From positions 805-64,804 of IMG/VR virus record IMGVR_UViG_3300025697_000023: a stretch of DNA of 64,000 nucleotides; one strand, written 5' to 3'. How positions within the stretch are numbered: the first letter of the stretch is position 1; every line of letters starts with the position of its first letter. Below are positions 5,403-57,136 of this stretch, one piece after another. The notes beneath the pieces are model-generated. The model saw only the letters and a program-made list of their open reading frames with translations. It was not told where the DNA came from and did no database searches. The DNA is from a virus. Lineage: Duplodnaviria; Caudoviricetes. A program made the position numbers and the translations under genes.

Positions 5403-5773
5403 TGGCACTTCAACTAGATCTTAAACAAACAAATACTATTGAGCCTGGGCCGGTCTATAAGGTCCTGAATGAAATTACATATGCGGAGGATATTGCTGCT
5501 GAAGTTTTTGTGTTTACAACAGTTGATCAGGAGTTTAGTCATGTAGCCTCTGTTTGGGACCTGATGAATCTTCCTGTAGGACATGCAGCAGCGGTTATTG
5601 CGGGAACTGACCGGTATCGTAAAGATACCGCAGAAGTGGGTTACGCATCGGTAGACACTGCCATTGAATTCGCAGAGTATGTTCGTGTACGCATACAGGC
5701 ATTATTGAATGCCTATAAATCAGCAACCGAGGACTTTGAGGGAATAACCGACTACGTGTTTACCCCGAGTTAA
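5402..5773 (+). CDS. hypothetical (probably structural) protein
   Basis: TAATG-coupled ORF; shares a VFVF...F.xVA...DF.G pattern with its neighbours. Confidence 0.6.
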   Translation: MALQLDLKQTNTIEPGPVYKVLNEITYAEDIAAEVFVFTTVDQEFSHVASVWDLMNLPVGHAAAVIAGTDRYRKDTAEVGYASVDTAIEFAEYVRVRIQALLNAYKSATEDFEGITDYVFTPS

Positions 5774-5776
5774 ACT

Positions 5777-8376: not shown

Positions 8377-9529
8377 GTTTAACCTCTTCTTGAGCCTTCT
8401 TGCAGACCATCTCGTAGTCGCTAATGGCTACATCCAATTCTATTTTAAGACGGTCAGCTCGTTCCGGATTTAACTTTCCGATAACCTGATTAATATAGTT
8501 TACGTTTCCTCGAAGGTAATCAATGTACTGTTCTACTGTCGGGTATCCTGCCCGAGCATATTGGGTTTCAATCCCATGGGTTAATGAGTTGTGAACCATA
8601 GCTCGGAACAGAAGATATTTTTCACGCGGTATATTAGGTTTTTGATTGAAGACCATTCCTAGTAAAGTTTTACGATAGAAAGAATGTCCAACTCGGGTCT
8701 TCAGGGGGTTAATTCTATACTCCGCGGTTTGAATAATATCTGTGATACACCCACAAATTTCTTGAGATTCTTCCTTACTTATATTTACACCACAAGTGAA
8801 ACATAGATCATCAGAGTAGCGAGTATAGCGCCAGCACCAGACGTCTTTTAGGTTCATTTTTTTATCCAGGGTTTTTAAGTAACTGAGGATCTGATGATCT
8901 ATTCTGTCATCTGCAATAAGGTTACAGATAGCACCGGAGGTAGGGGCTCCTTGAGGAACTCCCGCGGATACTTGCGGTAGGTCATCTACAGTAAGAAGGC
9001 CTGCCAAGAGGCTCGCTGTATAGTGATTATAACCAGCATCTTTAAAATAGTTTCGAATCCAAGAGCGGTGGGTACTCCCAAAGAAATCCCGGAGGTCCAT
9101 TTGGATTACGGCACCTCTCCGGGGACACTCGTGTTTCTTGGGGGACACTCCTTTGGGAGTACCATCACAGGTTTTACAGGCAGGAATATGTTGTGCAACT
9201 GCATGCCGGGTAGACAGTCCTTTTCTATACGCAGTAACATGATCCCCCAATTGGCTCTGAAGAGGAATCAAGAACTTAGCGTGTACCCTGCGTAGGAACG
9301 ATTTCATAAAGGGTGAAGGAGCGTGAATAATCCGAAAACCCTTTCGTTTTTTAGGGATTCGGTGAACGGTATAGTGTTCGTCTTTCTGATTAAGTACCCA
9401 CCAGAGTGTTTTGGTTGCATACCCTAACCGGAAAGAAAGGCTACAATCATCCACGGCATAGGGAGTAACTTCGGGAATATTTGGTAATTCAATTCTAACT
9501 ACTGAGGTTTTGGCAAAGCCTATGGACAT
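8369..9529 (-). CDS. retron-type reverse transcriptase
   Basis: IPKK.KGFRIIHAP, AYRKG..T.HAVAQH (region X-like), MDLRDFFGS, VPQGAPTSGAICN, YTRYSDDLCF, INPLKT, LLGMVFN (region Y-like). Confidence 0.92.
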   Translation of the reverse strand: MSIGFAKTSVVRIELPNIPEVTPYAVDDCSLSFRLGYATKTLWWVLNQKDEHYTVHRIPKKRKGFRIIHAPSPFMKSFLRRVHAKFLIPLQSQLGDHVTAYRKGLSTRHAVAQHIPACKTCDGTPKGVSPKKHECPRRGAVIQMDLRDFFGSTHRSWIRNYFKDAGYNHYTASLLAGLLTVDDLPQVSAGVPQGAPTSGAICNLIADDRIDHQILSYLKTLDKKMNLKDVWCWRYTRYSDDLCFTCGVNISKEESQEICGCITDIIQTAEYRINPLKTRVGHSFYRKTLLGMVFNQKPNIPREKYLLFRAMVHNSLTHGIETQYARAGYPTVEQYIDYLRGNVNYINQVIGKLNPERADRLKIELDVAISDYEMVCKKAQEEVKHA

Positions 9530-16683: not shown

Positions 16684-16701
16684 CTTATACCGCTAACTAG
16701 C
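16684..16701 (-). promoter_or_regulatory. candidate promoter GCTAGTTAgcGGTATAAG
   Basis: Near-identical to GCAAGCTAttGGTATAAG at 35307-35324; both lie directly upstream of small minus-strand units. Confidence 0.45.
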
Positions 16702-19700: not shown

Positions 19701-20148
19701 CAAAGATCATAATAGGACGGTCAGGACGTGAGTATGTTAATAGCTCCTGGTGAAAAAGTGGAGCACAACAATCTATATTATTTTTGAGAGGCTTTTTGCG
19801 CTCACAACGCACCGCATACGTAAACCTTCCTACGAACGGCTTAAACACCGTGTTTATATCTATTGTCCGTAGAAAGGCCGCACGTACTATTTTCTCAATG
19901 TCTTTAGTCCATCCTTGATGGTTAATTAGACTAGCAGACGGTCCCGATAAAAATGGAGAATTAGCTACGCAGAAAAAATCAACTTTATGAGGAGTCCCTC
20001 CTGCGCCGTCAGTATAGTGTGCTTTTTGGGAAAGCTTACAAGTCTTACACTTGGGGCCGCGCCATGCATTTTCACCGCAGAGTTGGCAGAAATCATTCGT
20101 CGCGGGTCCATCCGTATTCGCTGGCGTCTTTTGGTCGTTGTTTACCAT
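16693..20148 (-). CDS. polA: family A DNA polymerase with N-terminal UDG-like domain, 3'-5' exonuclease and mini-intein
   Basis: Exo I LDTET, Exo II QNAKFD, Exo III YGAIDGD; TATFRL/SSS..NMQN, motif A DAKAAEVR, motif B RKTIKRVVFGILYG, motif C VHDS. N-terminal Cys cluster and YAVRC...CC.P resemble family-4 UDG. Confidence 0.92.
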   Translation of the reverse strand: MVNNDQKTPANTDGPATNDFCQLCGENAWRGPKCKTCKLSQKAHYTDGAGGTPHKVDFFCVANSPFLSGPSASLINHQGWTKDIEKIVRAAFLRTIDINTVFKPFVGRFTYAVRCERKKPLKNNIDCCAPLFHQELLTYSRPDRPIMIFAMGDSVLKSLGIKFRKYSATQEHFVTTTLQGRKVYIYVSMSKQQLAAKTGYFDLFKNHMDLFLSGVVDVGKGKAIQMTPTLDVLAKNYVFPKTLKEVEKLVDHILAYTENDVNPDNWIISLDTETNTKYPHRKNLKLLSLIVSWATGYSTSIPIEHPDTPWTFEQVAPLIQRILSSPKPKVLQNAKFDLKVLKSKGWDIRRIGWDTMLGEHLLVEDKKGFYGLKDLTNIMLPAYSGYEDTLQAILTATEGDSQIADAKQTAEKKKKLKGAAKKLAKDAATEGFLKIPLDDLNLYGAIDGDVTRQIVGLQRERAEQENTALAKRRGQWAHNAYFKHLAQPGCSMRDPTSANMFGRVIPTTRVLAEMELYGVKVDRDYVDELAVKMELSIVQSRAEMLPMVPENIKFNPSSAADVRKLLYGTGFKHPETGKIVCYSGVIEPPRTETGLASTNAQFLRSLATQHDCPLSRAILRYRATHKALTTFVANIKALSEEDGRMHTNFHQHGTATFRLCVSENTILDTDKGSFVISKLPLDLIPSVSIRTHKNRLRNIVKLFCKGDEEMYCVTLENGSSIEVTKNHGFYTPSEPGSIYGPLVIHRLKELDIGSEVTTCNRQRRIRDKYRSNKFGTSRIKSIRSIGIKGVWDIEVAYDHSFVAQGFVNHNSSSDENMQNVPYQIGQHNIKKSFIPTDPESQVICNADAKAAEVRIYAAYSKDKNLIKALNDGMDPHSFFAGMIFKPETILAEVQYASRKAVMNLIGIDEDHGWSYDDFNNRNNFKDTDPWYARQLEKLRKTIKRVVFGILYGASKYKIAQIVGISLEQAQTIIDALEKMFPSIPEYVRITKDQVRNIGVVETFLGRRRRFEMLGLTPYGRSKANRQAINFKIQSTSSDLVLEVLCEMAEPIRHDFGGHLLITVHDSIVAEIPKKYVSQIPDFVKEYGQTRVATRHPWLPVPFQWDVEVGPSYGEVIDIYDYMNKNNIEKLDPDAYLEQAIRADFEKEIAAS
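17719..18171 (-). mobile_element. mini-intein (~151 aa, no endonuclease) in DNA polymerase
   Basis: CVSENT...VTKNH...VWDIEV..DHSFVAQGFVNHN, inserted between FRL and SSS. Confidence 0.9.
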
Positions 20149-25410: not shown

Positions 25411-25507
25411 TGTGATTTCTCCTGTTTGTTGAAGGACCCTCAGGGTAAGACAATTCAATTACATTGTCCATCGATATGTGTTAAAAAGAACTATAAGGAG
25501 GCTGAAA

Positions 25508-26530
25508 ATGTCCGATGATTTTTTTCTAGACCGGGTATTTACGGCGTATTACGATGATGTAGGTAAACATGAGGTATTAACACCGGAAAAAGAACGTAAA
25601 TTACTACTACAGTATCGTACCTGCTCCCACTGTGACACACCTATTCCGCAAAAAATACCGGAAACCAACTGTCCGTTTTGCGGTACAATGGTTCCGTCAA
25701 CGACTAGTGCTAAGGGGCGACAACATATTTGTAGCTCTTGTTCTGCCAAATTTGATATACAGATTACACCTAAAAGATGTCCTACCTGCGGTGCTGATAG
25801 AGATACAAAATCCCGGGAACAATTAATAATTTCTAATCTTCGTTTTGTTATGAAAACTGCTAAAAGTTTCTCCCGTAAACCTGCCCATATTCAGCGGCTG
25901 GTATCTGCTGGTAACGTTGGATTGATACTCGCAGTTGACAAATTTGAGTTGAGTAAAGAAACAAGATTTTTAACTTATGCTGCCTGGTGGATTCGAAAAG
26001 AAATGTTGGACGAGATTAACAGTCTGGGACTAATTCATATCCCTTCGCATAAACAGAAATCTATGCGTAAAGAAATGAAAGAAGGAACATACGTTTGTCG
26101 CCATTGTGAAATGCGAACACATACGCCTGACCACATAGCACATCTCCCTCCTTGCGTAGAAAAAACGCATGAGTTTATTTTACCAGATGTTCCTAGCCTC
26201 TTTCACTCAATTACCACTATAGAAAATCTTTCACTGTCGGATAATAAAGACGTAGAGTTTGACGCTATCGGTGATAACTCTGCACGTATTTTACGAGATG
26301 CTATCCGGTCCATGAATGTAAGTGAGCGGGATAAATTTATAGTTATTCAATACTATAATGTTCCCCAAGAAGAACGAAAAAGTGCACAACCTAAGAGTCT
26401 TCATCAGCTCGCGTCTGTCGCAAGAATTACGCCAGAACGAGTACGACAGATAAAAGAAAAATTACTAAAAGATTTGCGTGTAGAGATGAAGCGTCGATCT
26501 GTTGGTGATGCTCAGGATATTTGTTGGTAA
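25508..26530 (+). CDS. sigma-70 family factor with Zn-ribbon insertions
   Basis: Region 1.2 YYDDVGKHEVLTPEKE; region 2 LIISNLRFV, GNVGLILAVDKFE, RFLTYAAWWIRK; region 4 ITPERVRQIKEK; AAGGAGG SD. Confidence 0.9.
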   Translation: MSDDFFLDRVFTAYYDDVGKHEVLTPEKERKLLLQYRTCSHCDTPIPQKIPETNCPFCGTMVPSTTSAKGRQHICSSCSAKFDIQITPKRCPTCGADRDTKSREQLIISNLRFVMKTAKSFSRKPAHIQRLVSAGNVGLILAVDKFELSKETRFLTYAAWWIRKEMLDEINSLGLIHIPSHKQKSMRKEMKEGTYVCRHCEMRTHTPDHIAHLPPCVEKTHEFILPDVPSLFHSITTIENLSLSDNKDVEFDAIGDNSARILRDAIRSMNVSERDKFIVIQYYNVPQEERKSAQPKSLHQLASVARITPERVRQIKEKLLKDLRVEMKRRSVGDAQDICW

Positions 26531-32951: not shown

Positions 32952-34685
32952 ATGTCAACGTTGTCAAATATGACCAGCGGATCTTCTACGGGTGGTGCAG
33001 GTATTCATGCAAACCCTCACAGGACGTTTCTACAGACGATAACACCGCGTAGACTCAAGGAACTTTTCCTCTGGACAGAGTACCTTTTTTATAACAGCGC
33101 CCATGTTTACGCCGCACTTAGAAAGTTCGGCGAATACCCCATCACAGAAGTTACTTATAGTACCACTAATAAATCACTAAGAAAAAAACATAAGCATTTG
33201 CTGGAAAATGTTATCCGTGTTCGCGAGCTGCTCATCATGACTACTCTGGATAAGTACGTCTACGGTAACGCCTTCATGAGTATGTACCAGCCGTTTATTC
33301 GTTACCTGAAGTGTGATCGCTGCAGTACTCTTACAAATATTCAGCACATAGAGTACACCTTCAATCTTTCCAAGCTGACGTTCAAATATAAGTGTGGAAA
33401 TTGTGACGCTAACGTAATTGTAGGAGAGGAAAATATTCAGGATCGCAAGGTTATGCTTGCTAAGCAGGTGAATTTCATCCGCTGGGATCCCAAGATGATG
33501 GATATTGATTACAACCCGATGACGGGTACTTCTATCTATTACTATAAGATTCCACCAGACGTAGTACAGCGGGTGCAGCAGGGACATAAAGCACTTATTG
33601 ATACGCTACCCCTCGGGTTTATTAAGGCTATCAAAGAAAATAAAAAGTTCAAATTTGCCAAGGATGCTATTTTTCATATTAAGACTGCGGGTCCTGCGGG
33701 AGTGAATCCTCAGTGGGGACTACCTCCTCTTATTTCGGCTATTCAGCTTTTCCATTTTACTGCTGTCTTACGTAAAAGTAATGAAGCCATCGCGCTTGAT
33801 CACCTTGTACCCTGGCGTATTTTATCCCCGGCACAGCAATCACAACAGGCGGATCCAGTTACTACTATCAGTCTTCAAAACTGGACAACCCGGATGGATT
33901 GGCACCTTAAACAGTACCGCCAAGACCCCTTACATATTATGTATGCGCCTATTCCTGTGAATGTTTCCCAGATTGGTGGCCAGGGTAAAATGCTACTTAC
34001 TCTGGGGGAAGTTCAGGAAGCAGAAAAAAATATTGTAGCAGCCCTCGGGGTTCCTATGGAATTCCTATATGGCGGGCTCACTCGTAGTGGGATGGAAATT
34101 ACTTTGCGCCTGATTGAGAACCAACTCGAAACCCATATCAACGATATTAAAGATCTCCTGCAGTGGGTGGATGATGGTTGTTCTAAGTTCCTTGGGTGGG
34201 AACGCATAGGCGTGGACATGAAGCCTTTCCGTATGGTTGATGACGTCTTGCAAAAACAAACGCTCATGCAAATGTGGATGCAGGGGCAACAGTCAGGAGC
34301 ACCTGTTATCTCTGACCAGACCATTGCGGAACTAAATCAAGTTGACCTTAACAAAGAAGAAAGCCGAATTAAGCAGGAAACCCTGGATCGTGTGCGCCAA
34401 CAGCAAGAGATTCAGCTTGAGATTAATAAAATTCAAAATAACATGGCTACACAGATCATGGTAGACGCGCAGCAAGCTTCCGGAGGTTCCGGGTACAATC
34501 CTCTGCAAGTTATTTCTGAGGCAGATGCTATAGTAGGGCGCCTTACACAGTTAGATGAAGGCACAAAAAAGAGCGAGCTACATACTCTTCAGATGGAAGA
34601 CTATGTGCTCTACGCCGTGGTAGTTCAGCGGCTTGAACATTTTAATAGTTCGCAACAGCGGCAGACAGCCGCGAGTCCGGCATAA
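32952..34685 (+). CDS. probable portal protein
   Basis: 577 aa at the head of the plus-strand module; YVYGNAF and WGLPP segments, Zn ribbon, helical Gln-rich tail. Family resemblance only. Confidence 0.55.
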   Translation: MSTLSNMTSGSSTGGAGIHANPHRTFLQTITPRRLKELFLWTEYLFYNSAHVYAALRKFGEYPITEVTYSTTNKSLRKKHKHLLENVIRVRELLIMTTLDKYVYGNAFMSMYQPFIRYLKCDRCSTLTNIQHIEYTFNLSKLTFKYKCGNCDANVIVGEENIQDRKVMLAKQVNFIRWDPKMMDIDYNPMTGTSIYYYKIPPDVVQRVQQGHKALIDTLPLGFIKAIKENKKFKFAKDAIFHIKTAGPAGVNPQWGLPPLISAIQLFHFTAVLRKSNEAIALDHLVPWRILSPAQQSQQADPVTTISLQNWTTRMDWHLKQYRQDPLHIMYAPIPVNVSQIGGQGKMLLTLGEVQEAEKNIVAALGVPMEFLYGGLTRSGMEITLRLIENQLETHINDIKDLLQWVDDGCSKFLGWERIGVDMKPFRMVDDVLQKQTLMQMWMQGQQSGAPVISDQTIAELNQVDLNKEESRIKQETLDRVRQQQEIQLEINKIQNNMATQIMVDAQQASGGSGYNPLQVISEADAIVGRLTQLDEGTKKSELHTLQMEDYVLYAVVVQRLEHFNSSQQRQTAASPA

Positions 34686-35357: not shown

Positions 35358-38300
35358 ATGCCAGACTTGACCCCCATTATGATGGACCCGGAACAAAAAC
35401 GGGCAGCTATAAAGCAGCGCGTTATGGAAGGACTTCGTGAATCTTTCCCTGTAAAATCGCGCAATAAAACATTAGAAGTCTTGGACCTGAAATTTGTAGA
35501 CAAAGATTTTTCTCCGTCAGACCAAAAGGCAGCGCTTCTCCGGGGGGATACCTTGCATGAGGCTGTGAAAGGAACACTCAGACTCAAAGATAAAGATGGC
35601 AAATTAATTGACGAACTCAAAGATTTTACCATGGCCAGGATTCCTTGGTTTACTCCTCGCCACACATTTATTGTAGGGGGCAACGAGTATTCTGTTTCTA
35701 ATATGGTACGGCCCAAGCCGGGAGTCTATGCGCGTAAACGTGCTAATGAAGTTCTCGAAGCTAACTTTAATATCGTTGGAGGCCACAACTTTAATATCAC
35801 TATGGACCCTGAGAAAGGAGAACCGCAACTTGAATACGGTTCTTCAAAAATACCCTTGTATACAATTCTCCGTAAAGCCGGAGTATCTCATGAGCGTATT
35901 GCTAAGATATGGGGTCGAAAACTTGCAGAACAAAATCATAAAAAACTAAGTAAAAATGCTGATAAACATGTAGATAAACTTTACAACAAAATAATCCCGG
36001 AATACCGCCAAAAAGCAGGTGCGGGTACCTCTGATAAAATAGATGAGATTTTTGCGCGTTACGCTGACACCCACATGGACCCGGATGTCAATGAAGCCAC
36101 GCTAGGTAAACGCTACTCTGGTGTTTCTCAGGACAGTCTCTTAGATGCTTCAGGTAAAGTACTCCAAATTTTTAAACAAGACGCGGAGGTCGACGACCGA
36201 GACAACCTGGATTTTAAAACTATTCATGGTGTCGAAGATTTCTTTAAAGAACGTATCAAGCTTGACGCCCGGGACGTGGCACGAAAAACTGCAATCAAAA
36301 TGGAAGTTGTACCGGAACTTAAGAAAGCTCTAGCGTCAGGCCCGTTTACTAAGGGGATTCTTAAGTTTATCAATAGCTCTCAGTTAGCATCTGTGCCTAC
36401 GCAAACTAATCCTATGGAGTTAATTGATGCTGCCATGCGGGTTACTTCTTTGGGTGAAGGAGGGATCTCGTCAGAGCGTGCTATTCCTATAGAAGCTCGG
36501 TACACACATCCTACTCAGATTGGTGCCCTGGATCCTATACGTACTCCCGAGTCTTTCCGAGCAGGTATAGACGTCCGTGCTGCTATGATGGTTAAGCGCG
36601 ATAATAACGGCAATATCTATGTCCCCGTTTACGACGTAAAGAAAAAGAAATCTAAATATATTCGTGCAGGAGAAATCCAGCGAAAGATATTGGCTTTTCC
36701 AGGTCAGAAAATGACAGGTAAAGTAGATGTCTTAGACCGGGGCCGAGTTAGAGTGCTTCCTGCATCTCAGGTAGATTATCAAATCCCACATGTATCCGCC
36801 ATGTATAGTCCCACGACTAATCTGGTTCCGTTTATAGAATCATCCCAGGGTAACCGAGCTATTATGGGTTCCAAGATGAGTACTCAAGCGCTTTCGCTAG
36901 TAGATCGCGAAGCTCCCCTGGTACAGGTTAAGTCCCAAACAGGAGACTCCTTCGAAAGTTTGATGGGGAGCATTATTAATCCAACGGCACCAATCAATGG
37001 AACAGTTACCCGAGTTACTGATGAGTATATCTATATACGTCCTGACGGTGAAAAGGTGGGTGCTGTAGGGGGTAAGACCGTTAAAGTTCCGTATGAGAAA
37101 GATTTTCCTTTAGCATCTAAGACGTACTTAGATCACAAAATATTAGTAAAAAGTGGGGACCGCGTAAAGCGTGGACAAACTTTAGGAGAGTCTAATTTTA
37201 CTCGAGGAGGCAAGCTGGCTTTGGGTAAGAACCTACGGGTAGCTTACATGCCTTACTACGGAGCAAACTCTAATGACGCCGTGGTTGTAAGTGAAGGTGG
37301 CGCCGGAAAACTAACATCAGAACGAATGTATAAGATTGTTGTTACCCGGGATAATGACCTCACGTTTAACCGGGAAAAACATAGAACATATTATGGACAC
37401 GGCTACACGAAAGACCAGTATGGTCCTCTGGACAATGAGGGAGTAGTCAAACCGGGAGCTAAAATTAAGAGTGGGGATCCTGTAATTCTGGGTCTTCGTA
37501 AATCTGAAATGACTGCTGACGACATCATTCTTGGAAAATTGCATAGGTCTCTCGCTCGACCTTACCGGGAGTTTAAGCAGGGGTGGGACCATGACTATGA
37601 GGGCGAAGTTATCGATGTTGTAAAAACTCCCAAGCGTATTGCGCTCACGATTAAAACTAGAGAAAGAGCCACGGTTGGTGATAAACTCTGTTACACAAAA
37701 GATACTGATGTACTTACTACCGGCGGGTGGTTGCCTATATCTGAAGTAGATTACAATACCGTACTCTATACGCTCAAACAAAATGGAAATATAGAGCTTC
37801 AGTTGCCTACAGAACTTTATCGGTATAACAGCGCGGACGAACTGTATGAACTAGAATCCCAACAAGTTAACCTGAGGGTCACACCTAATCATAATCTGTA
37901 TGTAAAAACTCGGAATGCGCAAGATTATGCACTAATAGAAGCTCAAAAAGTATTGGGTAAACGTGTAAGACATAAGAAAGATGGAATTTGGCAAGCAGAA
38001 ACCCCCCGGGCAGTTAGAATACCCACAGTTATACGAAAAACGGTAGGACGAAAATCTAAAAAATTACCTGAGATTGATACGCTAGCATGGTGTAGATTTT
38101 TGGGCGCGTATTTAGCGAACGGAAGTTTTTTAGTTCATATGCGGAAAGACCGTAAAGGAAGTATCGAATACAGGACTGCTATACACACCGTGGAAGGGCA
38201 AACACACAGTGTATCGGGAGACCAGCATACTTGGATCCAAAATATTATTAATGCTTGTGGGTTTGTAGGACAACAACGGAAAGATCGATATAACATTTCT

Positions 38301-40775
38301 TCTCGGCAGCTTACGGAATATGTATCTCAATTTGGTCATGCTCAAGATAAACATATTCCTCCTGAGGTTTTCACGTGGGGAATTGACGCTGCACAGGCTA
38401 TGTTGGAAGGATTAATGGGCTGTGACGGAAATGCTTCTCAGAGCGGTAGTTGGTCATATTCTACTGTTTCAAAACAACTAGCGGATGATGTTCAACGTCT
38501 TGTGCTCCACGCAGGATGGGCGGCGAATATAAAAGAAAAGATGCCAGATAATCCTAACTGGAGTTTATGTTATAGTGTTCGGATTGTTAAATCTAAGTTA
38601 GCACCCCAAATAAATCATGGGCATTCACGAACACAAAATGGTCAAGAAGAACGAATAATTAAATCAAAAGAACCGGTATGGGGGGTTACAGTTCCCAATC
38701 ATGTTCTTTATGTCCGCGTTAAAGGAACTACTGTCTGGTCAGGGAATTCAGGACGTTTCGGCAATAAAGGAGTTATCTCCCAAATTATTCCTGACGACCA
38801 AATGATTGCGGATGAAGCTGGAAAACCTATTGATCTCATCATGACTTCTGCCGGAGTAGTTTCTAGAGTAAACCCCAGTCAGATTATTGAATCTGCGGTA
38901 GGAAAAGTTGCGGAGAAGAGAGGTAAACCCCTGCTTGTTGAAAACTTTTCAGGCCAAGATAATGTTAAGTGGGCAAAAGAGTTACTCAAAAAACACGGGA
39001 TCAAAGATAAAGAAACTGTGTATGACCCCCGAACGGGCAAGAAGATTCCGGGAGTATTTGTAGGTCGTCAATTTATAATGAAATTGTTTAAGTCCACAGA
39101 TACTAACTACGGAGCCCGCGGTCTAGGAAGTTACGACGTAAACCTTCAACCCACCAAGGGCGGTGCCTTGAGCGCCAAGACTCTGGGGCGAATGGAGTTT
39201 GATGCACTGATAGGACACAATGCTAGAAACATGCTTCGTGAAGCCACCGCAATTAAAAGTCAAAAAAACGATGAATACTGGCGAGCACTGCAGCTAGGGT
39301 ATCCAACTCCACAACCAAAAACCACCTTTGCAGCTGATAAGTTTTTGAACATGCTTACTGGAGCTGGCATCAAGGTTAACCGCCATAAAAATATAATGTC
39401 TCTTGCACCTTTGACTGACGCTGATGTTACAAAATTATCTGCGGGGGAAATCAAAGATGCAAAATTAGTTAGAGCCCGGGACCTTCGACCGGAAGTAGGC
39501 GGACTCTTTGATCCAGCTATAACAGGAGGTTTGCAAGGGACTAAGTTCAGCCATGTGTCTTTGGCTGAGCCTGTTATTAGTCCCGTATTCCGTGACCCTG
39601 TTCGTAGGCTTTTAGGCATGACAGTAAGTCAACTCAATACTGCAGTTAATGAAAAGGGTGCTAAGCATATCCAAAAAGAATTAGCTAAAATTAATATAGA
39701 TCAGCGTCTTCGTGACTTGTATAAATCGATGAAAAAGAAATCAGGGACGCAACTTGATAATGATTTGAAACAGACTAAGTATCTACGGTCGTTGAAAAAA
39801 CTAGACCTTACTCCTGACAAAGCCTATATCGTTTCAAAGATACCCGTAGTGCCTCCAGTAGTGCGCCCCATCATCCCTGGTAAGGGTGGTCAGGAGATCA
39901 TGTACGGGGATATTAATCCACTCTACCGAGATCTTATCTACATTAATAATCAGTTCAAGGATGTTAAGAAAAACAAAGTTTTGCTGGATGAAGATAAAAA
40001 CTTACGGCCAGCCCTCCAAGAAGCTGTGGGAGCTATCTACGGAACCAATGACCCTGTTACTCAAAAATCTAGAGCACGAGGTCACAAAGGATTCCTGACT
40101 GCCATTGCGGGAACCACTCCTAAGCTTGGGTATTTTCAATCCAAGTTGATTTCAAAAACACAGGATGTTTCTGGCCGCGGAACTATTGTACCTGACGTTA
40201 CCCTGGGGATTGATGAAGTAGGAATTCCTGAAGATATGCTCTGGACAATGTATGAAAAATTCTTGGTTAAGCGGTTGGTACAGAATGGTTACAAGGCTCT
40301 TCAGGCACGCGAGATGGTTGAGGAGCGGCATCCTGGAGCACGCGACATGCTTATGCGAGAAATACAGGAGAGGCCTGTAGTAGTTAACCGGGCGCCTACG
40401 CTGCATCGATACAACATGCTTGGTGCCTTCCCCAAAGCTGTTCCCGGTAAAACGATTAGAATTAATCCCTTTATGGAACCGAGCTTGAATGCAGATTATG
40501 ATGGTGACAGCATGAATATCCATGTCCCCGTCAGTCCGGAAGCAGTTAATGATGCCAAGGATATCACATTATCTCACATGCTCTTCAGTGACAAAGCCCG
40601 GGACAGTCTCCTAGTCTTCCCTGAAATGGAGGCCATCATGGGTCTCGCTCATGCTACTGAAGTAGATGATAAAAATACCACTACAAAAGATTTTAAAAAC
40701 AAGGGAGATGCCCTGAAGGCATATTATGCGGGTAAGATTGGATTAGGAACTCGAGTGAAGGTAGGTAAAAAGTAA
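35358..40775 (+). CDS. rpoBC: RNA polymerase beta subunit fused to the N-terminal half of beta', with intein
   Basis: beta motifs TNPM..RVTSLGEGG, HPTQIG.LDPIRTPE, NRAIMGSKM.TQA, GDKL/SGRFGNKG, QPTKGG..LGRME; beta' motifs GGLFDPAITG, IPVVPPVVRP, NRAPTLHR, catalytic NADYDGD. Confidence 0.95.
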   Translation: MPDLTPIMMDPEQKRAAIKQRVMEGLRESFPVKSRNKTLEVLDLKFVDKDFSPSDQKAALLRGDTLHEAVKGTLRLKDKDGKLIDELKDFTMARIPWFTPRHTFIVGGNEYSVSNMVRPKPGVYARKRANEVLEANFNIVGGHNFNITMDPEKGEPQLEYGSSKIPLYTILRKAGVSHERIAKIWGRKLAEQNHKKLSKNADKHVDKLYNKIIPEYRQKAGAGTSDKIDEIFARYADTHMDPDVNEATLGKRYSGVSQDSLLDASGKVLQIFKQDAEVDDRDNLDFKTIHGVEDFFKERIKLDARDVARKTAIKMEVVPELKKALASGPFTKGILKFINSSQLASVPTQTNPMELIDAAMRVTSLGEGGISSERAIPIEARYTHPTQIGALDPIRTPESFRAGIDVRAAMMVKRDNNGNIYVPVYDVKKKKSKYIRAGEIQRKILAFPGQKMTGKVDVLDRGRVRVLPASQVDYQIPHVSAMYSPTTNLVPFIESSQGNRAIMGSKMSTQALSLVDREAPLVQVKSQTGDSFESLMGSIINPTAPINGTVTRVTDEYIYIRPDGEKVGAVGGKTVKVPYEKDFPLASKTYLDHKILVKSGDRVKRGQTLGESNFTRGGKLALGKNLRVAYMPYYGANSNDAVVVSEGGAGKLTSERMYKIVVTRDNDLTFNREKHRTYYGHGYTKDQYGPLDNEGVVKPGAKIKSGDPVILGLRKSEMTADDIILGKLHRSLARPYREFKQGWDHDYEGEVIDVVKTPKRIALTIKTRERATVGDKLCYTKDTDVLTTGGWLPISEVDYNTVLYTLKQNGNIELQLPTELYRYNSADELYELESQQVNLRVTPNHNLYVKTRNAQDYALIEAQKVLGKRVRHKKDGIWQAETPRAVRIPTVIRKTVGRKSKKLPEIDTLAWCRFLGAYLANGSFLVHMRKDRKGSIEYRTAIHTVEGQTHSVSGDQHTWIQNIINACGFVGQQRKDRYNISSRQLTEYVSQFGHAQDKHIPPEVFTWGIDAAQAMLEGLMGCDGNASQSGSWSYSTVSKQLADDVQRLVLHAGWAANIKEKMPDNPNWSLCYSVRIVKSKLAPQINHGHSRTQNGQEERIIKSKEPVWGVTVPNHVLYVRVKGTTVWSGNSGRFGNKGVISQIIPDDQMIADEAGKPIDLIMTSAGVVSRVNPSQIIESAVGKVAEKRGKPLLVENFSGQDNVKWAKELLKKHGIKDKETVYDPRTGKKIPGVFVGRQFIMKLFKSTDTNYGARGLGSYDVNLQPTKGGALSAKTLGRMEFDALIGHNARNMLREATAIKSQKNDEYWRALQLGYPTPQPKTTFAADKFLNMLTGAGIKVNRHKNIMSLAPLTDADVTKLSAGEIKDAKLVRARDLRPEVGGLFDPAITGGLQGTKFSHVSLAEPVISPVFRDPVRRLLGMTVSQLNTAVNEKGAKHIQKELAKINIDQRLRDLYKSMKKKSGTQLDNDLKQTKYLRSLKKLDLTPDKAYIVSKIPVVPPVVRPIIPGKGGQEIMYGDINPLYRDLIYINNQFKDVKKNKVLLDEDKNLRPALQEAVGAIYGTNDPVTQKSRARGHKGFLTAIAGTTPKLGYFQSKLISKTQDVSGRGTIVPDVTLGIDEVGIPEDMLWTMYEKFLVKRLVQNGYKALQAREMVEERHPGARDMLMREIQERPVVVNRAPTLHRYNMLGAFPKAVPGKTIRINPFMEPSLNADYDGDSMNIHVPVSPEAVNDAKDITLSHMLFSDKARDSLLVFPEMEAIMGLAHATEVDDKNTTTKDFKNKGDALKAYYAGKIGLGTRVKVGKK
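37689..38747 (+). mobile_element. intein (~353 aa) with LAGLIDADG endonuclease in RNAP beta
   Basis: CYTKDT...VTPNH...FLGAYLANGS...MLEGLMGCDG...VWSGN, between GDKL and SGRFGNKG. Confidence 0.92.
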
Positions 40776-42266
40776 GTGGCTACTTCCCCCAATTCCTGGA
40801 GCGCCCGCTTAACTGGCGGAAATCCTCTTACTAAGCAGGATGTCCACGACTACTATACTGACCCTGTCATCCAGCAACGTATGTTAGCAGCTCTGGCTGG
40901 ACGTAACTTACTCGCAGTTATGTCTAGGTCTCCAACACAGCAGATATTTAAACGCTATCTTGGGAAGAACAAACCCATCCGGATTGACTCGAAAGATGAT
41001 CTCGATTATTATACATCCCGTCGTTACACTGAGTTTCATCCTACCGTAGGAGACCAAACACAGGAGGTATGGGTTGATATCGATCCCGGTAAAGGCGTTT
41101 CTACCGCACAACTCAAACCAGCTGTCAGGGATGTTGCAAAAACTGTACGTTCCGTACCCAACGTCCGTGATGTCGCCATCTCTTTCTCCGGAGGGCGTGG
41201 CTTCCACGTTCGTGGCTTTTTGGATAAGCCCCGTAATACCGATAGAATGCGCAAACAGCTCGAGTCTGAACTGGGCGGAATTCTCAAAACTACCCCAGCA
41301 TATACTCTGACGCCCCCGGGTAAGGGTGAAATTCGCCTGGATGTGTCTACCCTGCATAACAAGGGATCCCTTCGGGCCCCGTACTCACTCCACAGCGAGA
41401 CCGGGCTCGTAGCTCTACCTCTAAAAAATAATGAACTAGATAAATTCGATCCTAAGAAAGATGCTACTCCTGAGGAAGTTCTTAAGCGTAAAGAATTTGC
41501 GCCCGGAATTTCTATGGAGCGAACTATTCAACCAATTCCTGAAGAGAGCGGGAAACATTGGACCCTTGCAGTTCAGGAACATAACGCAAAAAAAGCAGGT
41601 AAACATTTTGATCTTCGTCTGGTAGATCCTAGTACAGGCTTTGCGCATTCTTGGGCAATTCCTAAGACCAAGTTTCCGGCACAAAAGGATCGTCCTATTC
41701 TGGCTATCCAAACTCCTACACATACTGCTGAGTATGCTCTCCAGTTTGGTGCAGACAAGACACGTACAATCGGTAAAGGGTATGGTGCTGGAACCGTTCG
41801 TATTGTTGAAAAGAATCCTGTAAAAATTATTACGGCTAAACCAAACTCAATAAAGTTTGAAAAGGACACAGGGGAGACCTATCATTTGTTTAGGACAAAG
41901 GATACAACCTGGCTTTTGAGAAATATAACAAGTACAAAAGAGGGAGCCGATATGTCTGAGGCGTTTAATACGGGGTATAGGCTGACAATGGAAAAAATAG
42001 CAGCCCGTCGAACCATGGGTATGGAGGGCTCTCCACCTGTAAGTGAAACGAACCAGCCCCTGGAGAACGCTGATCAGGGGGGTGCAGCAGACTCCTTAGC
42101 AAAAATGCTCCAAGAAATTCCCGAACTACAGTCTAAAAACCAGAGTAAGAGTACTAACTTGGGAATACAGCAGAGACTCAACAGACGCACAGGATGGTCA
42201 GGTCCTCATAGTATGCAGGGAGAACGAATCGAGGGAGCTTCACCTATTATGGTGGGAAGGTGGTAA
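40776..42266 (+). CDS. LigD-like primase-polymerase plus 3'-phosphoesterase fusion (no ligase domain)
   Basis: AEP motifs TEFHP, VDIDPG, SGGRGFHV, RAPYSL; PE motifs VQEHNA..HFDLRL, SWAIPK, H..EY..F, GYGAGTV. Confidence 0.88.
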   Translation: MATSPNSWSARLTGGNPLTKQDVHDYYTDPVIQQRMLAALAGRNLLAVMSRSPTQQIFKRYLGKNKPIRIDSKDDLDYYTSRRYTEFHPTVGDQTQEVWVDIDPGKGVSTAQLKPAVRDVAKTVRSVPNVRDVAISFSGGRGFHVRGFLDKPRNTDRMRKQLESELGGILKTTPAYTLTPPGKGEIRLDVSTLHNKGSLRAPYSLHSETGLVALPLKNNELDKFDPKKDATPEEVLKRKEFAPGISMERTIQPIPEESGKHWTLAVQEHNAKKAGKHFDLRLVDPSTGFAHSWAIPKTKFPAQKDRPILAIQTPTHTAEYALQFGADKTRTIGKGYGAGTVRIVEKNPVKIITAKPNSIKFEKDTGETYHLFRTKDTTWLLRNITSTKEGADMSEAFNTGYRLTMEKIAARRTMGMEGSPPVSETNQPLENADQGGAADSLAKMLQEIPELQSKNQSKSTNLGIQQRLNRRTGWSGPHSMQGERIEGASPIMVGRW

Positions 42267-42268
42267 AG

Positions 42269-42535
42269 ATGAAGAAGACAGCAAACCAAATCGCAGACGA
42301 AGTTATTGAGAAAGTGGCAATGCCTTACAAAGGAATGATAAAGTCCACTAAACAGATGATTAAAACCTTGACAGGATTTAATGATGCTGCAAGCCGTAAA
42401 GCACTCAAAGAAAGTCAAAAATTCTTAAAAGAAATGGAAGCAGCACAGTCCACAGCAGCCCATGACTTGGGGAGCGTTGACATAGATAAAGGACTTAAAT
42501 CCGTAGGTATGAAACCGTTAAACTTAGGTAAATAA
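42269..42535 (+). CDS. small protein with MKKTANQIAD leader
   Basis: N-terminus nearly identical to that of 60917..61126. Confidence 0.65.
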   Translation: MKKTANQIADEVIEKVAMPYKGMIKSTKQMIKTLTGFNDAASRKALKESQKFLKEMEAAQSTAAHDLGSVDIDKGLKSVGMKPLNLGK

Positions 42536-44329
42536 ATGACTGAAACCTTCGGAAAATATCTAATTAACGATACCCTTCCACACGAACATCGTGTCACTGG
42601 GGCAGTGACTAAAAAAGATTTCTCTAAGCGTATGGTGATCTTGGCTAAGGAAGATCCTACTAAATACGCAAAACTCGTAACGCGGCTCAAAAAACTAGGA
42701 GATGAATTAGCAACACAAGCAGGACTTTCTGTAGGTCTTGACGATATTACTCCGGAGTATTCTATTCGTAATCAAACCTTGGCTCCGTATTTGAAAAGAT
42801 TTAGGGAAACTAAGTTAGCAGATAAACACCGGGCTATTGCTGAGGCCGCGCAGGAAAAAATGCAAAAAATGGTCATGCGCCATCCCGGGTCACTTACTCA
42901 GCAGGTTCGTTCTGGAGCCCGAGGAAAATCGTTTCAGCTCATGGGTATTGTCGCAGGCCCTGTTGCCTCCAATGAACCTACAGGACAAACAGCTCCCTGG
43001 ATCATTCAGAAATCCTACAGTGAAGGTCTATCTCCCGCGGACTATTGGGTGGCAGGTAACGAAGCAATCCTGAATACTATCAAATCAAGTACCTCTGTCT
43101 CCGAGCCTGGAGAATTGTCTAAAGTTCTAATTAACAATATGAATGATCTCATAATTACGGAAGATGACTGTGGAACCACTAATGGAATTCTCCTGAAAAC
43201 CACAAATCCTGATGTTATCGATAGATACTTAGCTCGAGATACCGGGCCTTTCCGACGTAACATGCTTATCACTTCGCTACTACAGCCTAAGCTGGCACGC
43301 ACAAGTACTAAGGTATTGGTACGTTCTCCTATGACTTGTGAAGCGGGAGACGGAGTTTGCCAGAAGTGCCAAGGCCTCGACGAAAAAGGGAATATTCAGG
43401 AGATGGGAACCAATGTAGGCGTCCGTGCTGCTCAGGCTATGGCCGAACCCCTAACACAATTTGCACTGGATGCTAAGCACGGTACGCGTACCGCGAAGGG
43501 TGAGCGTAAAAAAGTAGGAGGCATCGTAGGCTTCCGACAAATTATTGAGTCACCTAAAACGTTTATTAATAAAGCAACTCTGGCATCAATATCTGGAAAA
43601 ATTAAGAATATCGAGACTGCCCCCCAGGGAGGACATTTTGTTTTTGTTGATAACGAAAAACATTACGTCAGTCCTAATCTTGGTGTGATTGTTCAAAAAG
43701 GAGATGTCCTGGAGGCGGGGGATGTATTAAGTGAGGGTATTCCAAAACCTGATGAGGTGGTTAAATACAAAGGCCTCGGGGCGGGGCGTCTTTACATGGT
43801 GAATACCCTAAAAGATCTATACCGTAATCAAGGTCGTGATCTTGACCAGCGTCATTTTGAACTCTTGGCCCGAGGTGAACTAGACTTTGCGAGGATTGTA
43901 GATGATCCTGGAAATACATTTTTAAAGGGTGACATAGTAAGTTATAACCAAATTCAATCTACACTAGGGCGTGACACGCAGGAAGTACCAGTTAAGGATG
44001 CAATTGGACAAACACTCGGAAAAGATTATTTCCAATATTCTACAGGTCTTAGGGTTACTCCATCTGTTGCAAGATTTTTACAAAAAGAAAACGTAAAAAG
44101 TGTTCAGATTGCTCCGAGGGCTCCAGAGATAGAGTTTGTAATGAAACCTGCAACCCGTGCGCCCCTGCTTAATCCCGATTGGATGGCTCGACTATCCCAC
44201 CGTAATTTGAAAGTTACTCTTCAGCAAGCAGCTCACTTTGGAGAAAAGTCAGATCTCCACGGAGTTCACCCTGTTCCGGCGTATATTATGGGAGTGGACT
44301 TTGGTAAAGGAGAACAGGGACGTTATTAA
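42536..44329 (+). CDS. rpoC2: RNA polymerase beta' C-terminal half
   Basis: GLSVGLDDI, SGARG, SYSEGLS, ITEDDCGT, VRSPMTC...VCQKC.G, VGVRAAQAMAEPLTQ...H, RHFELL. Confidence 0.92.
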   Translation: MTETFGKYLINDTLPHEHRVTGAVTKKDFSKRMVILAKEDPTKYAKLVTRLKKLGDELATQAGLSVGLDDITPEYSIRNQTLAPYLKRFRETKLADKHRAIAEAAQEKMQKMVMRHPGSLTQQVRSGARGKSFQLMGIVAGPVASNEPTGQTAPWIIQKSYSEGLSPADYWVAGNEAILNTIKSSTSVSEPGELSKVLINNMNDLIITEDDCGTTNGILLKTTNPDVIDRYLARDTGPFRRNMLITSLLQPKLARTSTKVLVRSPMTCEAGDGVCQKCQGLDEKGNIQEMGTNVGVRAAQAMAEPLTQFALDAKHGTRTAKGERKKVGGIVGFRQIIESPKTFINKATLASISGKIKNIETAPQGGHFVFVDNEKHYVSPNLGVIVQKGDVLEAGDVLSEGIPKPDEVVKYKGLGAGRLYMVNTLKDLYRNQGRDLDQRHFELLARGELDFARIVDDPGNTFLKGDIVSYNQIQSTLGRDTQEVPVKDAIGQTLGKDYFQYSTGLRVTPSVARFLQKENVKSVQIAPRAPEIEFVMKPATRAPLLNPDWMARLSHRNLKVTLQQAAHFGEKSDLHGVHPVPAYIMGVDFGKGEQGRY

Positions 44330-44925
44330 TGTCTTTAGACGCTGCACAAGCTGGTCGTGATTCTGTTTTTCACCTTATGGGCATGGAGAAAGAAGCCAAG
44401 GTATTTTCTCCCGGGTGGCTCGGACGTCTTGGTCAGGGGGCCAAACGCTTTATGATAGGAGACCCTAAAAAATTTATGGGAGAAGTCCGGTCAGGAAAAG
44501 TAATGGCTCCTGGAAGTTCTATCCGTTCTATGTTTGCGTTGCCCAGTTTTAAAAAACACCCGATAAAAGCTACAGCAATGGGGGGACTTATTTACGGACT
44601 TCCAGCTTACGAGGGTTATCAGATTTCACAGGATCCTGAACCTAATAAGGCACAACGTATTGGAGGTATGCTCGGAGGAACAGCTCTGGGGTGGGCAGCT
44701 TTTGGGCCGGTTGGAATGCTTGGATCTATCCCAGCGGGGATGGCAGGTGAATGGGCTGGCGGTCAACTCGGAAAAGGTGTGGGGAAACTAACCGGAGAAG
44801 GAACTGCTACTCAAGCAGAACTTCCTCCGCCCTCACGACGATTAATGCCTCATCAATATTTCAAGCAAACATCTCAGAATCGACCTTTGACCGATGTTTC
44901 GAAATGGCAACAACAACAATATTAG
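44329..44925 (+). CDS. Gly-rich hydrophobic (glycine-zipper-like) protein
   Basis: GGMLGGTALGWAAFGPVGMLGSIPAGMAG; MEKEA motif. Confidence 0.6.
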   Translation: MSLDAAQAGRDSVFHLMGMEKEAKVFSPGWLGRLGQGAKRFMIGDPKKFMGEVRSGKVMAPGSSIRSMFALPSFKKHPIKATAMGGLIYGLPAYEGYQISQDPEPNKAQRIGGMLGGTALGWAAFGPVGMLGSIPAGMAGEWAGGQLGKGVGKLTGEGTATQAELPPPSRRLMPHQYFKQTSQNRPLTDVSKWQQQQY

Positions 44926-56221: not shown

Positions 56222-57136
56222 ATGGATTATATGGTTGAAACTCCGGAAGTGACTGCACGCTTCGTGAATACTAACTTCGTGAAGAAGATCGAAGGTGGTA
56301 TGAAAAAGGAAGCGGAGGACACAGGCACTGCGTTCATCCGTGAAAAACTGCGCCAGGAGGCTGCGGTTCGTGAGATCTTGATTCCCCAGGGATTGAGTGA
56401 GGAAGACATCGACCGCGATGAGTACACGGATCAGCCCAAGAAGATCATCGACAAGGAGCCTGACAGTTACGCGACCTACGTACAGTTCCAGGGCACCGGT
56501 CGGCGTACCTGGTTCAAGGGCAAACGGTATGCGATCTTCTTCGGAAAGATTGAAACCCAGCGCTTCACGAAGTCGAAGTTTGAGTTGATGACTTATACAG
56601 GTGATATCCGGCAGATTCTGTCTGATAACTCTGTAAAAGACATGGCGGACAAAGAAGACGAGTATTGGTATAATCTCGTGTCCGACATTATCAACCTGAA
56701 CGCTGCTGAACAGCGTACTTCGGGAGCATTCCAGTCTTCAACATTCAAGCAGGCAATGCAGAAAATGTTGAACAGACGTCGCCCTATCGGCAAGATGCTG
56801 ATGACGAAGTCTCGGTACATGGATGCACTTGATCTTCCAGCTACTACTGTTGGTGATAACATCGCGCAGCGTCACTTCGATGAGGGCATCGAGTCCAGTG
56901 AAAAGCTGTGGGGTATCCCGGTAGTAACGACTATCAAGTCGGACATCTACCCCTGGGATAATGCCTGGGTATTCGCACCTCAATCTCCAAATAACTTCCT
57001 TGGAAACTTCTTCCTGCTGCAGGATGCCACGCTCTACATCGAACAAAAAGCGGACATGATTTCCTTCTGGTCTTACGAAGCACTCGGAATGGGTGTTGGT
57101 AACCGGTTGTCCATGCAGGAAATAAAGTTCGTCTAA
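56222..57136 (+). CDS. probable major capsid protein
   Basis: 304 aa, strong SD, strongly C/G-ending codons; follows protease/scaffold/decoration genes; LWGIPVV resembles the HK97-fold G.PV motif. Confidence 0.65.
   Translation: MDYMVETPEVTARFVNTNFVKKIEGGMKKEAEDTGTAFIREKLRQEAAVREILIPQGLSEEDIDRDEYTDQPKKIIDKEPDSYATYVQFQGTGRRTWFKGKRYAIFFGKIETQRFTKSKFELMTYTGDIRQILSDNSVKDMADKEDEYWYNLVSDIINLNAAEQRTSGAFQSSTFKQAMQKMLNRRRPIGKMLMTKSRYMDALDLPATTVGDNIAQRHFDEGIESSEKLWGIPVVTTIKSDIYPWDNAWVFAPQSPNNFLGNFFLLQDATLYIEQKADMISFWSYEALGMGVGNRLSMQEIKFV

Follow-up and report, generated by a model that had tools for sequence, protein, structure and literature searches.

The analysed stretch of 64,000 nt (the window) is nearly the entire 64.8-kb IMG/VR virus record IMGVR_UViG_3300025697_000023, whose genome completeness is estimated at 36%, and at positions 35358 to 44329 it encodes what is, by its sequence, a bacterial-type RNA polymerase (RNAP) core in which beta is fused to the N-terminal half of beta' and the C-terminal half of beta' is a separate gene. 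We consider it probable, taking the reading as a whole, that this is a two-polypeptide, sigma-dependent phage RNAP core that is matured by intein splicing, packaged in the virion and derived by fission. An initial annotation, made from the letters of the window and a list of its open reading frames (ORFs), had described one ORF running from beta into beta' past the catalytic NADYDGD, with the rest of beta' 1.76 kb downstream. Both observations hold: Pfam beta and beta' domains lie together in a 1805-aa chain, and an ORF at 42536-44329 with a Pfam Rpb1_5 match follows after a gap of 1,760 nt. The parts of the polymerase are as follows.

35358..40775, + strand: precursor gene, beta fused to the N-half of beta' and containing an intein (Pfam Rpb2_3, Rpb2_6, LAGLIDADG_3, Rpb1_1, Rpb1_2)
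35358..37688, + strand: N-extein, beta residues 1-777 up to GDKL (family profile aligns to E. coli beta 54-156 and 420-932)
37689..38747, + strand: intein, 353 aa (residues 778-1130), inside GDKL^SGRFGNKG of beta
38748..40772, + strand: C-extein, SGRFGNKG onward and then the beta' N-half through NADYDGD, ending at about E. coli beta' 551-553
39378..39404, + strand: beta/beta' fusion junction, placed by profile-to-E. coli alignment
42536..44329, + strand: beta' C-half (beta'C), 597 aa, protein P0002 (Pfam Rpb1_5; bridge-helix/trigger-loop region and second Zn site)

The frame at 35358-40775 is open for 1805 codons plus a stop and contains both beta and beta' homology, with Pfam matches to Rpb2_6 (E 2e-39) and Rpb1_2 (E 1e-25). 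NADYDGD occupies residues 1711-1717 (nt 40488-40508), and removal of the intein restores the beta lysine motif GDKL|SGRFGNKG, such that both double-psi beta-barrel signature motifs are intact. A profile built from 44 intein-free relatives and aligned to the E. coli subunits matches beta residues 54-156, 420-932, 1051-1139 and 1178-1336 (of 1342) and beta' residues 23-65 and 178-551. Beta homology stops at residue ~1339-1340 of the phage chain (E. coli beta 1336 of 1342) and beta' homology begins at residue 1350 (E. coli beta' 23), with a junction between them of ~10 profile positions. The N-extein includes the fork region, the rifampicin-pocket region (nt 36375-36464) and a flap-tip-like segment (nt 37512-37553); the flap-tip region can be aligned to E. 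coli beta, in agreement with the retained flap-tip-like helix of the initial annotation.

Other parts of the bacterial subunits are missing. E. coli beta 933-1050 has no counterpart in the phage family profile, and just 38 profile positions stand in place of the 112 residues of beta' 66-177, which are unaligned and which we take to be the location of the N-terminal Zn ribbon. All five Cys residues of the 1805-aa ORF are inside the intein and none are in the exteins, so that the mature chain could not bind the beta' N-terminal zinc, and this Zn-binding domain is, as judged from the alignment, gone from the phage enzyme. In the rifampicin-pocket segment the residues D516, H526 and S531 (E. coli numbering), presumably the classic rifampicin resistance hot spots, are replaced by T, A and T respectively, and the phage polymerase is possibly rifampicin-insensitive. 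Bacterial chains are matched at ~25-30% identity only.

For the separate beta'C protein, the region with the bridge helix, trigger loop and Zn site has matches among solved bacterial beta' chains at E 7e-38; the aligned residues are 925-1132 and 1183-1397 in Thermus beta' and 721-936 in E. coli beta'. Its Zn-site cysteines (C212, C268, C275 and C278) are invariant or nearly so in relatives. The family beta'C profile begins at about E. coli beta' 571, and the position of the break can be compared with that of cyanobacterial rpoC1/rpoC2 using HMMER local coordinates, which are approximate. The last 116 residues of the fused gene align to Synechocystis gamma 446-556 of 626 (E. coli 439-550), placing the end of the phage beta' N-half (beta'N) at about gamma 561, ~65 residues short of the gamma C-terminus, and ~56 residues of the gamma tail have no phage counterpart. 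On the other side of the break, beta'C residues 39-113 align to cyanobacterial beta' 30-101, with residue 39 at 30-31, and beta'C thus starts ~9 aligned residues ahead of the cyanobacterial beta' N-terminus; the initial annotation had likewise put the cyanobacterial split slightly downstream of the phage one. By these alignments the phage break is in the same variable linker as the cyanobacterial rpoC1/rpoC2 break, but is offset from it.

Many relatives share the fused gene. A word-indexed search with the fused ORF gave 838 proteins at E <=1e-10 among 7,998 scored, and 120 of these were listed; in the precomputed Pfam column all 120 have both Rpb2_6 and Rpb1_2, and none has Rpb1_5. Each of the 120 alignments extends to the last part of an intein-free reference and reaches its end, starting within the first 18 residues in 118 cases, the exceptions being P0024, which begins at reference position 291, and P0061, at 76. 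The lengths of the listed homologues are under 1400 aa in one, 1400-1499 aa in 47, 1500-1699 aa in two, 1700-1899 aa in 31, 1900-2099 aa in 22, 2100-2399 aa in 11 and 2400 aa or more in six. The two-gene layout is equally regular. P0002 alone as query found a single IMG/VR locus (L009), and a 12-row beta'C alignment matched 193 IMG/VR relatives; in all of the best 80 loci, which were kept, a same-strand fused gene lies upstream, followed by a spacer of 503-5731 nt and then beta'C, with a portal match upstream in 66.

The family also includes cultured phages; a megablast search of the 9-kb stretch against phage records gave zero matches. The two-gene layout is found in Salmonella phage Arash and in Vibrio phages D69 and D181. 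In Salmonella phage Arash (180.8 kb) the order is portal gp204, gp205, fused gp206, ten small genes and beta'C gp216. The orthologous fused gene in Vibrio phages D181 and D148 is additionally interrupted by a group I intron together with a homing-endonuclease ORF; in D181 (locus L001) the intron is at 5182-5462 (Rfam RF00028, 100.7 bits vs a gathering score of 50) and the endonuclease ORF at 5476-6093. By its tblastn match alone, Vibrio phage D69 differs in that the match is ~930 nt shorter and falls in two pieces as opposed to three.

A more complex picture is seen within the beta lysine motif. The large ORF had been read as a plain fusion, and although the fusion stands, a 353-aa intein inside it was overlooked. 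The fused ORF is 35% identical to the intein-free Arash gp206 (1525 aa), and BLASTP aligns the two in separate blocks, residues 3-778 and 1131-1803. The intervening segment begins with C778 directly after GDKL, has a block B TPNH, two LAGLIDADG motifs (Pfam LAGLIDADG_3 at residues 1013-1080) and a GN end at N1130|S1131, and tblastn with the whole ORF matches, over residues 778-1131, inteins of phage thymidylate synthase, terminase and nucleotidyltransferase genes. On these features the insertion is a class 1 LAGLIDADG intein, but one in which the penultimate His of the class (block G HN) is absent. A pattern search at the same site in relatives found the GN end in all 40 resolved allelic inteins and TxxH in 39 of them, and the penultimate Gly therefore looks like a trait of the lineage and not decay. 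The endonuclease may be weakened. Because the intein interrupts the beta-barrel lysine motif, an active enzyme would need protein splicing, and the spliced chain is predicted to be ~1452 aa long.

Insertions of at least 100 aa, tallied along the reference among the 120 listed homologues, fall into five clusters. The window's intein site at ~777 is occupied in 52 and empty in 63, and the position at ~1363-1397, directly after DYDGDS, is occupied in 29; further clusters are at 565-601 (16 homologues), ~412 (four) and 1044 (two). The insertion at 565-601 is of variable length (104-409 aa, among P0096-P0121) and may represent a domain specific to a lineage rather than an intein; it often has Pfam PF18823 in the precomputed column. 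The closest relatives of the window exteins, P0009 (90% identity) and P0012 (82%), lack the intein. In P0026-P0031 the intein is 30-33% identical to that of the window vs 63% for the exteins, and in P0074, P0083 and P0090 the intein is 51-57% identical vs 45-49% for the N-extein. This mismatch, together with the nearest relatives being intein-free, fits a mobile element.

Other polymerase subunits were surveyed in five complete relatives: three IMG/VR genomes rated 100% complete, together with Arash and D181. Neither alpha (PF01000, PF01193) nor omega (PF01192) was found by Pfam in any of the five (positive controls 14 of 14 for each), and these three families have zero matches in the window's own record, consistent with the earlier statement that the window has neither gene. 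The beta' barrel gene (PF00623) is present exactly once in each of the five genomes, and each also has at least one match to Sigma70_r2, which is above the cut-off in four. The sigma gene of the window and the structural genes that bracket the polymerase are given below; the head-module context derives from tblastn to Arash and D181, and PHROGs named none of the head-module ORFs apart from a weak protease match.

25478..26530, + strand: sigma-70 family factor, 350 aa (Pfam Sigma70_r2, DZR; PHROG 351)
32952..34685, + strand: portal protein, 28% identity over 544 aa to Arash gp204; the polymerase genes come after it
56222..57136, + strand: major capsid protein, 41% identity to Arash gp226; end of the head module containing the polymerase genes

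The sigma factor has regions 2-4, with NCBIfam RpoD_Cterm covering positions 2-233 of 238, preceded by an N-terminal double zinc ribbon, and from its sequence it is the probable partner of the phage polymerase. We note that the sigma has a zinc ribbon and the polymerase has lost that of beta', but compensation is pure speculation. The sigma gene cited in the initial annotation is real, but by both position and sequence its orthologue in Arash is gp196 and not gp10, the sigma-like protein found in Arash virions; gp10 is a second, divergent sigma-like gene in Arash.

The location of the polymerase genes had suggested that the enzyme might be packaged in virions, and the Arash orthologues support this. 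In the available part of the Arash virion mass spectrometry (PMC10585845), gp206 has 3,516 spectra, the most of any protein, and 100% peptide coverage; gp216 is fifth with 1,210 spectra, placing both among the five proteins with the most spectra, and the sigma-like gp10 has 467. An alternative which we consider unlikely, but which fares best among those weighed here, is that the polymerase is not a virion component and is instead made late and contaminates particles, acting as a middle or late intracellular enzyme. The Arash authors themselves allow that abundant enzymes may merely co-purify with virions, ribonucleotide reductases and ligases being likewise detected, and the module-adjacent sigma gp196 is absent from the accessible rows of their virion table (PMC10585845). 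However, gp206 tops all spectra counts, including that of the major capsid protein, with gp216 fifth and gp10 also in the particles, and the gene position between portal and capsid genes is fixed family-wide.

The direction of change between single-chain and split forms is provided by relatives in which the whole of beta and beta' is one chain. A full-library phmmer search with beta'C gave 5,032 proteins at E <=0.001 and 1,149 at E <=1e-30, which probably include cellular beta'. The best 150 cluster representatives were taken, of which 147 covered at least 430 of 611 profile positions and three were dropped. Among the 147, 113 are split (beta'C starting <=35 residues from the N-terminus), 27 are single-chain (beta::beta'N directly before beta'C in one protein) and seven are neither. 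Intact single-chain proteins are 1,985-2,090 aa long, or up to 2,876 aa with inteins, and Pfam finds Rpb2_3, Rpb2_6 and Rpb1_1 to Rpb1_5 all within them; in P0185 the join is seamless, with beta'N ending at 1434 and beta'C beginning at 1435. An alignment of ten single-chain proteins matched 441 IMG/VR relatives and 79 loci were kept, 75 of which have one ORF of ~1,990-2,894 aa spanning the whole of beta and beta'; the remaining four are either cut by contig ends (two) or frame-broken (two), and a portal match is upstream in 59 of the 79. The frame-broken loci are L151 and L157, where polymerase homology is in several frames under table 11.

Trees were made for the beta'C region using seven bacterial beta' as outgroup, drawn from metagenome-assembled genomes (MAGs), E. 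coli, and bacterial DNA filed among phage records; a scan of MAG contigs for related loci had returned five loci only and zero bacterial rpoC. In a FastTree analysis (LG+G; 161 rows, 596 columns) rooted on the bacterial sequences, the split forms are one clade (n=120, support 0.843) which is sister to three single-chain rows (0.94) and lies inside a grade of single-chain rows. An IQ-TREE analysis (LG+C20+F+G4 PMSF, quick search) used 67 rows. Of the 27 single-chain rows 26 were included, and of the 114 split rows 28, namely seven hand-picked ones plus one in four of those with <10% gaps; the remaining 13 rows are references. Here the family is separated from the seven bacterial beta' with an SH-aLRT of 100, the split forms are on one side of a branch at 97, and together with four single-chain rows they form a clade at 92; on this tree, two changes account for the single-chain label. 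The nesting of the split clade among single-chain forms points to the split as one derived fission and, with the bacterial outgroups unsplit at this place, the simplest history is one basal fusion and one later fission. The fused-then-split layout thus appears not to be the one-off for which it was first taken, but a later state of a family whose older form is a single-chain beta::beta'. Ralstonia phage RP13 and Rhizobium phage TM30 were considered as relatives and rejected, having other layouts and falling outside the family in the trees.

It is improbable, in our judgment, that the two-gene form is instead ancestral and that the ~2,050-aa single-chain genes are later fusions, possibly repeated. 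Deep rooting with long branches is unreliable, the FastTree backbone has weak nodes (0.34 and 0.61), and fusion of adjacent genes is mechanistically easy. Nonetheless, the split forms are one clade (97) inside a single-chain grade (92) with only two changes of label, the nearer phage outliers as well as the bacterial outgroups have beta' unsplit there, and the spacers, of 0.5-5.7 kb, contain unrelated cargo, which is what insertion into a formerly continuous gene would leave behind.

A recent and independent capture of host rpoB-rpoC, followed by streamlining and rearrangement, is close to the origin first proposed, and would agree with motifs that are readily alignable to bacterial RNAP and with a bacterial-type sigma. 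We nevertheless find it very unlikely. The architecture and the portal-side position are shared by phages of Salmonella and Vibrio and by IMG/VR loci (80 of 80 split, 75 of 79 single-chain), the family forms a single clade (SH-aLRT 100), identity to bacterial chains is low, and the mReC analysis of phage RNAPs (PMC7481178), in its accessible text, favours an old origin. The enzyme is bacterial-type, as had been said, but the window is a member of a large monophyletic phage family with 193 and 441 IMG/VR relatives, set apart from the seven bacterial beta' and not captured on its own.

The sequence itself is sound. Four further public runs, X3-X6, carry the label of salt lake metagenomes; their contigs, compared as contigs and not as raw reads, cover 8,972 nt with zero indels and zero joints. 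The beta/beta' junction is bridged gap-free by contigs X3-4, X5-21 and X6-29, none with a stop or frameshift there; the intein N-boundary is bridged by X3-1, the intein C-boundary by X3-2 and X5-20, and the beta'C start by X4-15 and X6-31. The source is a metagenomic contig of low estimated completeness, but with 1805 codons open, fusion in 120 of 120 listed homologues, full peptide coverage of Arash gp206 in the available data, and these bridging contigs, there is next to no chance that the fused ORF stems from faulty assembly or annotation or is a pseudogene in decay. A single X3 contig departs from the window just upstream of nt 42534, which suggests that the spacer varies between co-occurring strains. 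In addition, over ~32 nt (38457-38489) in the intein endonuclease region, other contigs of all four runs match and then diverge on both sides, a pattern pointing to relatives of the intein elsewhere in these samples, whether in other phages or in other genes. Split inteins occur in cyanobacterial DnaE and the phage family is rich in inteins, but trans-splicing of the two beta' halves by a split intein into a single working chain was rejected as having practically no likelihood, since the C-terminus encoded by gene 1 and the N-terminus encoded by gene 2 can be matched position by position to single-chain relatives, leaving no surplus intein-like residues.

The most probable scenario for the two-polypeptide, packaged enzyme is that gene 1 yields a 1805-aa precursor composed of beta, the ~10-residue junction and the beta' N-half through the Mg-binding NADYDGD, from which the 353-aa intein would splice itself out to give an active chain of ~1452 aa. 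Gene 2 would yield the 597-aa beta' C-half with the bridge helix, trigger loop and second Zn site, and this would join non-covalently, as cyanobacterial gamma and beta' do. With no recognisable genes for them, alpha and omega would not be used, and the phage sigma would provide promoter recognition. From orthology with Arash gp206 and gp216, the enzyme would be loaded into the capsid, and would probably enter the cell with the DNA and start transcription; as the sole RNAP set in complete relatives, it may also transcribe later genes. The family would have originated with a full single-chain beta::beta' of ~2,050 aa, from which a single fission would have given the two-gene form, with a break that holds inserted DNA of variable content, in the window a LigD-like gene.

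Several points weigh against this scenario. The outgroup is small, with seven bacterial beta' from which cyanobacteria, Campylobacterota and Wolbachia are absent; the backbone is moderately supported (FastTree 0.34-0.94, IQ-TREE 92) and branches are long; and P0166, one of the 114 split-labelled rows, 550 aa long and N-terminally short, falls among single-chain forms in the FastTree tree. In the intein the penultimate residue is Gly instead of the usual His, and the first LAGLIDADG motif, judged by eye, has Asn where an acidic residue is expected. The absence of alpha and omega is by Pfam profiles alone, such that diverged analogues are possible, and the record is ~36% of a genome. The sigma-like protein of Arash virions, gp10, has no counterpart in the window, the co-purification of abundant enzymes allowed by the Arash authors (PMC10585845) applies here too, and splicing, assembly, sigma use and packaging are all inferred for the phage of the window.

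A wider history, which we hold to be evenly balanced between right and wrong, joins these elements. The founder would have been a single ~2,050-aa chain, sigma-using and capsid-borne, without alpha, omega or the beta' Zn ribbon; one fission near the cyanobacterial/plastid site would have followed, and inteins and a group I intron would have colonised the enzyme. Inteins would be at no fewer than four sites across the family, including GDKx^S of beta and DGDS^ of beta', and with inteins in catalytic motifs and a group I intron, the active polymerase would depend on both protein and RNA splicing. If this were true, the founder would be the most compact sigma-dependent cellular-type RNA polymerase known, and the shared linker would be a naturally permissive cut site.

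The break in beta' is occupied in the window by two ORFs.

40776..42266, + strand: LigD-like primase-polymerase and 3'-phosphoesterase, 496 aa (Pfam LigD_Prim-Pol, LigD_N; NCBIfam)
42260..42535, + strand: 91-codon ORF abutting the beta'C start, possibly not a gene

The LigD-like gene fills the break, abutting both neighbours, and its product is 74% identical end to end with that of the gene at the equivalent position in locus L010. A LigD-like gene is within the spacer of 33 of the 80 related split loci, and a few single-chain loci carry one elsewhere, downstream. The 91-codon ORF has no family match and no tblastn match in the 80 related loci; that it is a frameshifted tail of the LigD-like gene was rejected on comparison with the L010 gene. 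Downstream, the ORF at 44329-44925 (+) overlaps the beta'C stop (ATGA) and encodes a glycine-rich, hydrophobic product with no family match. In P0127, P0129, P0130 and P0132 a segment matching it is within a 340-500 aa C-terminal extension of beta'C. It was considered as an extra polymerase subunit and dropped, given its composition and the lack of a family match.

Among other genes of the window, we note that a class II ribonucleotide reductase (215-3850, - strand), with LAGLIDADG_3 within its barrel domain, and a family A DNA polymerase (16693-20148, - strand), with an Intein_splicing match at residues 688-810, both look intein-bearing, giving three intein hosts in the 64 kb when the fused RNAP gene is counted. 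A reverse-transcriptase gene at 8369-9529 (- strand; RVT_1, E 4e-11) adjoins a DUF2201 metallopeptidase/VWA-like gene and an AAA_5 ATPase.

The lineage has been sighted before. Weinheimer and Aylward (2020, PMC7481178) described mReC from IMG/VR and metagenomes: uncultured tailed phages whose beta and beta' resemble those of cells, contain NADxDGD and are flanked by phage hallmark genes. They make up a clade distinct from cellular RNAPs, and an ancient origin was argued for it. As in the window family, the mReC beta and beta' are recognised by cellular profiles, and the fused ORF has both the length (at least 800 aa) and the NADxDGD motif used for mReC (97 contigs) in the accessible text; the window lineage is probably the published mReC clade. 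That text does not use 'split', 'intein', 'sigma' or 'virion' at all, has 'fused' and 'fusion' for crAssphage only, and gives no account of fusion, fission, inteins, missing alpha and omega, or packaging (PMC7481178). Arash has the same two-gene layout after the portal, with a 1525-aa fused gene and a 606-aa beta'C which are 35% and 30% identical to those of the window, but unlike the window it has no intein and its spacer is ~4.8 kb with ten small genes, some on the opposite strand. The Arash record labels both gp206 and gp216 'subunit beta', whereas the paper, in its accessible part, has gp206 as beta and gp216 as beta' with the fusion unmentioned (PMC10585845). Thus the lineage has been reported, as mReC and in Arash, but no description of the fused-then-split layout, the inteins or the subunit content was found in the literature searched, to which subscription-only papers and closed supplements may add; the accessible part of a 2026 review has nothing on this phage family. 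The window locus is a new sequence in an already sighted lineage, whose architecture, polarity and selfish-element load appear undescribed.

In the cyanobacterial and plastid rpoC1/rpoC2 system, as in the phage, the cut in beta' separates the catalytic barrel from the bridge-helix module, but the phage differs in having beta fused upstream and in its small beta'C, 597 aa vs 1318-1323 aa for solved cyanobacterial beta' chains. The nesting of the split forms within single-chain phage forms, in trees without cyanobacterial rows, leads us to infer that the two splits are separate in origin. An independent break beside the cyanobacterial/plastid site suggests that the linker is a structurally tolerated place to cut beta'. 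In the rpoBC genes of Helicobacter and Wolbachia the beta C-terminus is joined to the beta' N-terminus in one frame, and these fusions are of full-size cellular subunits that work with alpha and omega. The phage fusion is by comparison compact, with ~18 residues trimmed at the junction and beta' 66-177 missing.

The virion RNAP of crAss-like phages is a single chain with two barrels, encoded among structural genes, and it shares with the window's fused gene the presence of both barrels in one polypeptide. Cellular beta/beta' profiles do not detect the crAss enzyme (PMC7481178, in its accessible text), whereas the window chain scores well on them, as seen with Rpb2_6 and Rpb1_2. The phiKZ/AR9-type RNAPs that jumbo-phage RNAP reviews cover, one mentioning mReC in passing, are built of 4-5 highly diverged polypeptides, with beta and beta' each in 2-3 pieces, use no sigma and come as two paralogous sets, according to the available parts of those reviews (PMC7598289, PMC7824862). 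They resemble the window enzyme as phage-encoded, two-barrel cellular-type RNAPs without alpha or omega, of which one form is virion-carried, but the window family has one set (five of five genomes), one or two polypeptides, and sigma genes. The window intein resembles the LAGLIDADG inteins described by Goodwin et al. (2006, PMC1635734) at the most conserved positions, near the active site, of the second-largest RNAP subunit, which also vary in presence between strains; the hosts of those inteins are eukaryotic and nucleocytoplasmic large DNA viruses (NCLDV) whereas the window's is a phage, and the accessible text of that paper has no description of a phage RNAP intein.

These comparisons make the family a good target for biochemistry. 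An RNAP built from one or two chains, with neither an alpha dimer nor omega, is relevant to the assembly of the large subunits. Structural and synthetic biology would gain a small, sigma-dependent enzyme that is possibly rifampicin-insensitive, and the inteins in both catalytic motifs offer a natural system for the study of selfish-element load on an essential enzyme. Packaging of the polymerase with sigma would be a third route to host-independent early transcription, beside the N4-type single-subunit and the phiKZ-type fragmented enzymes.

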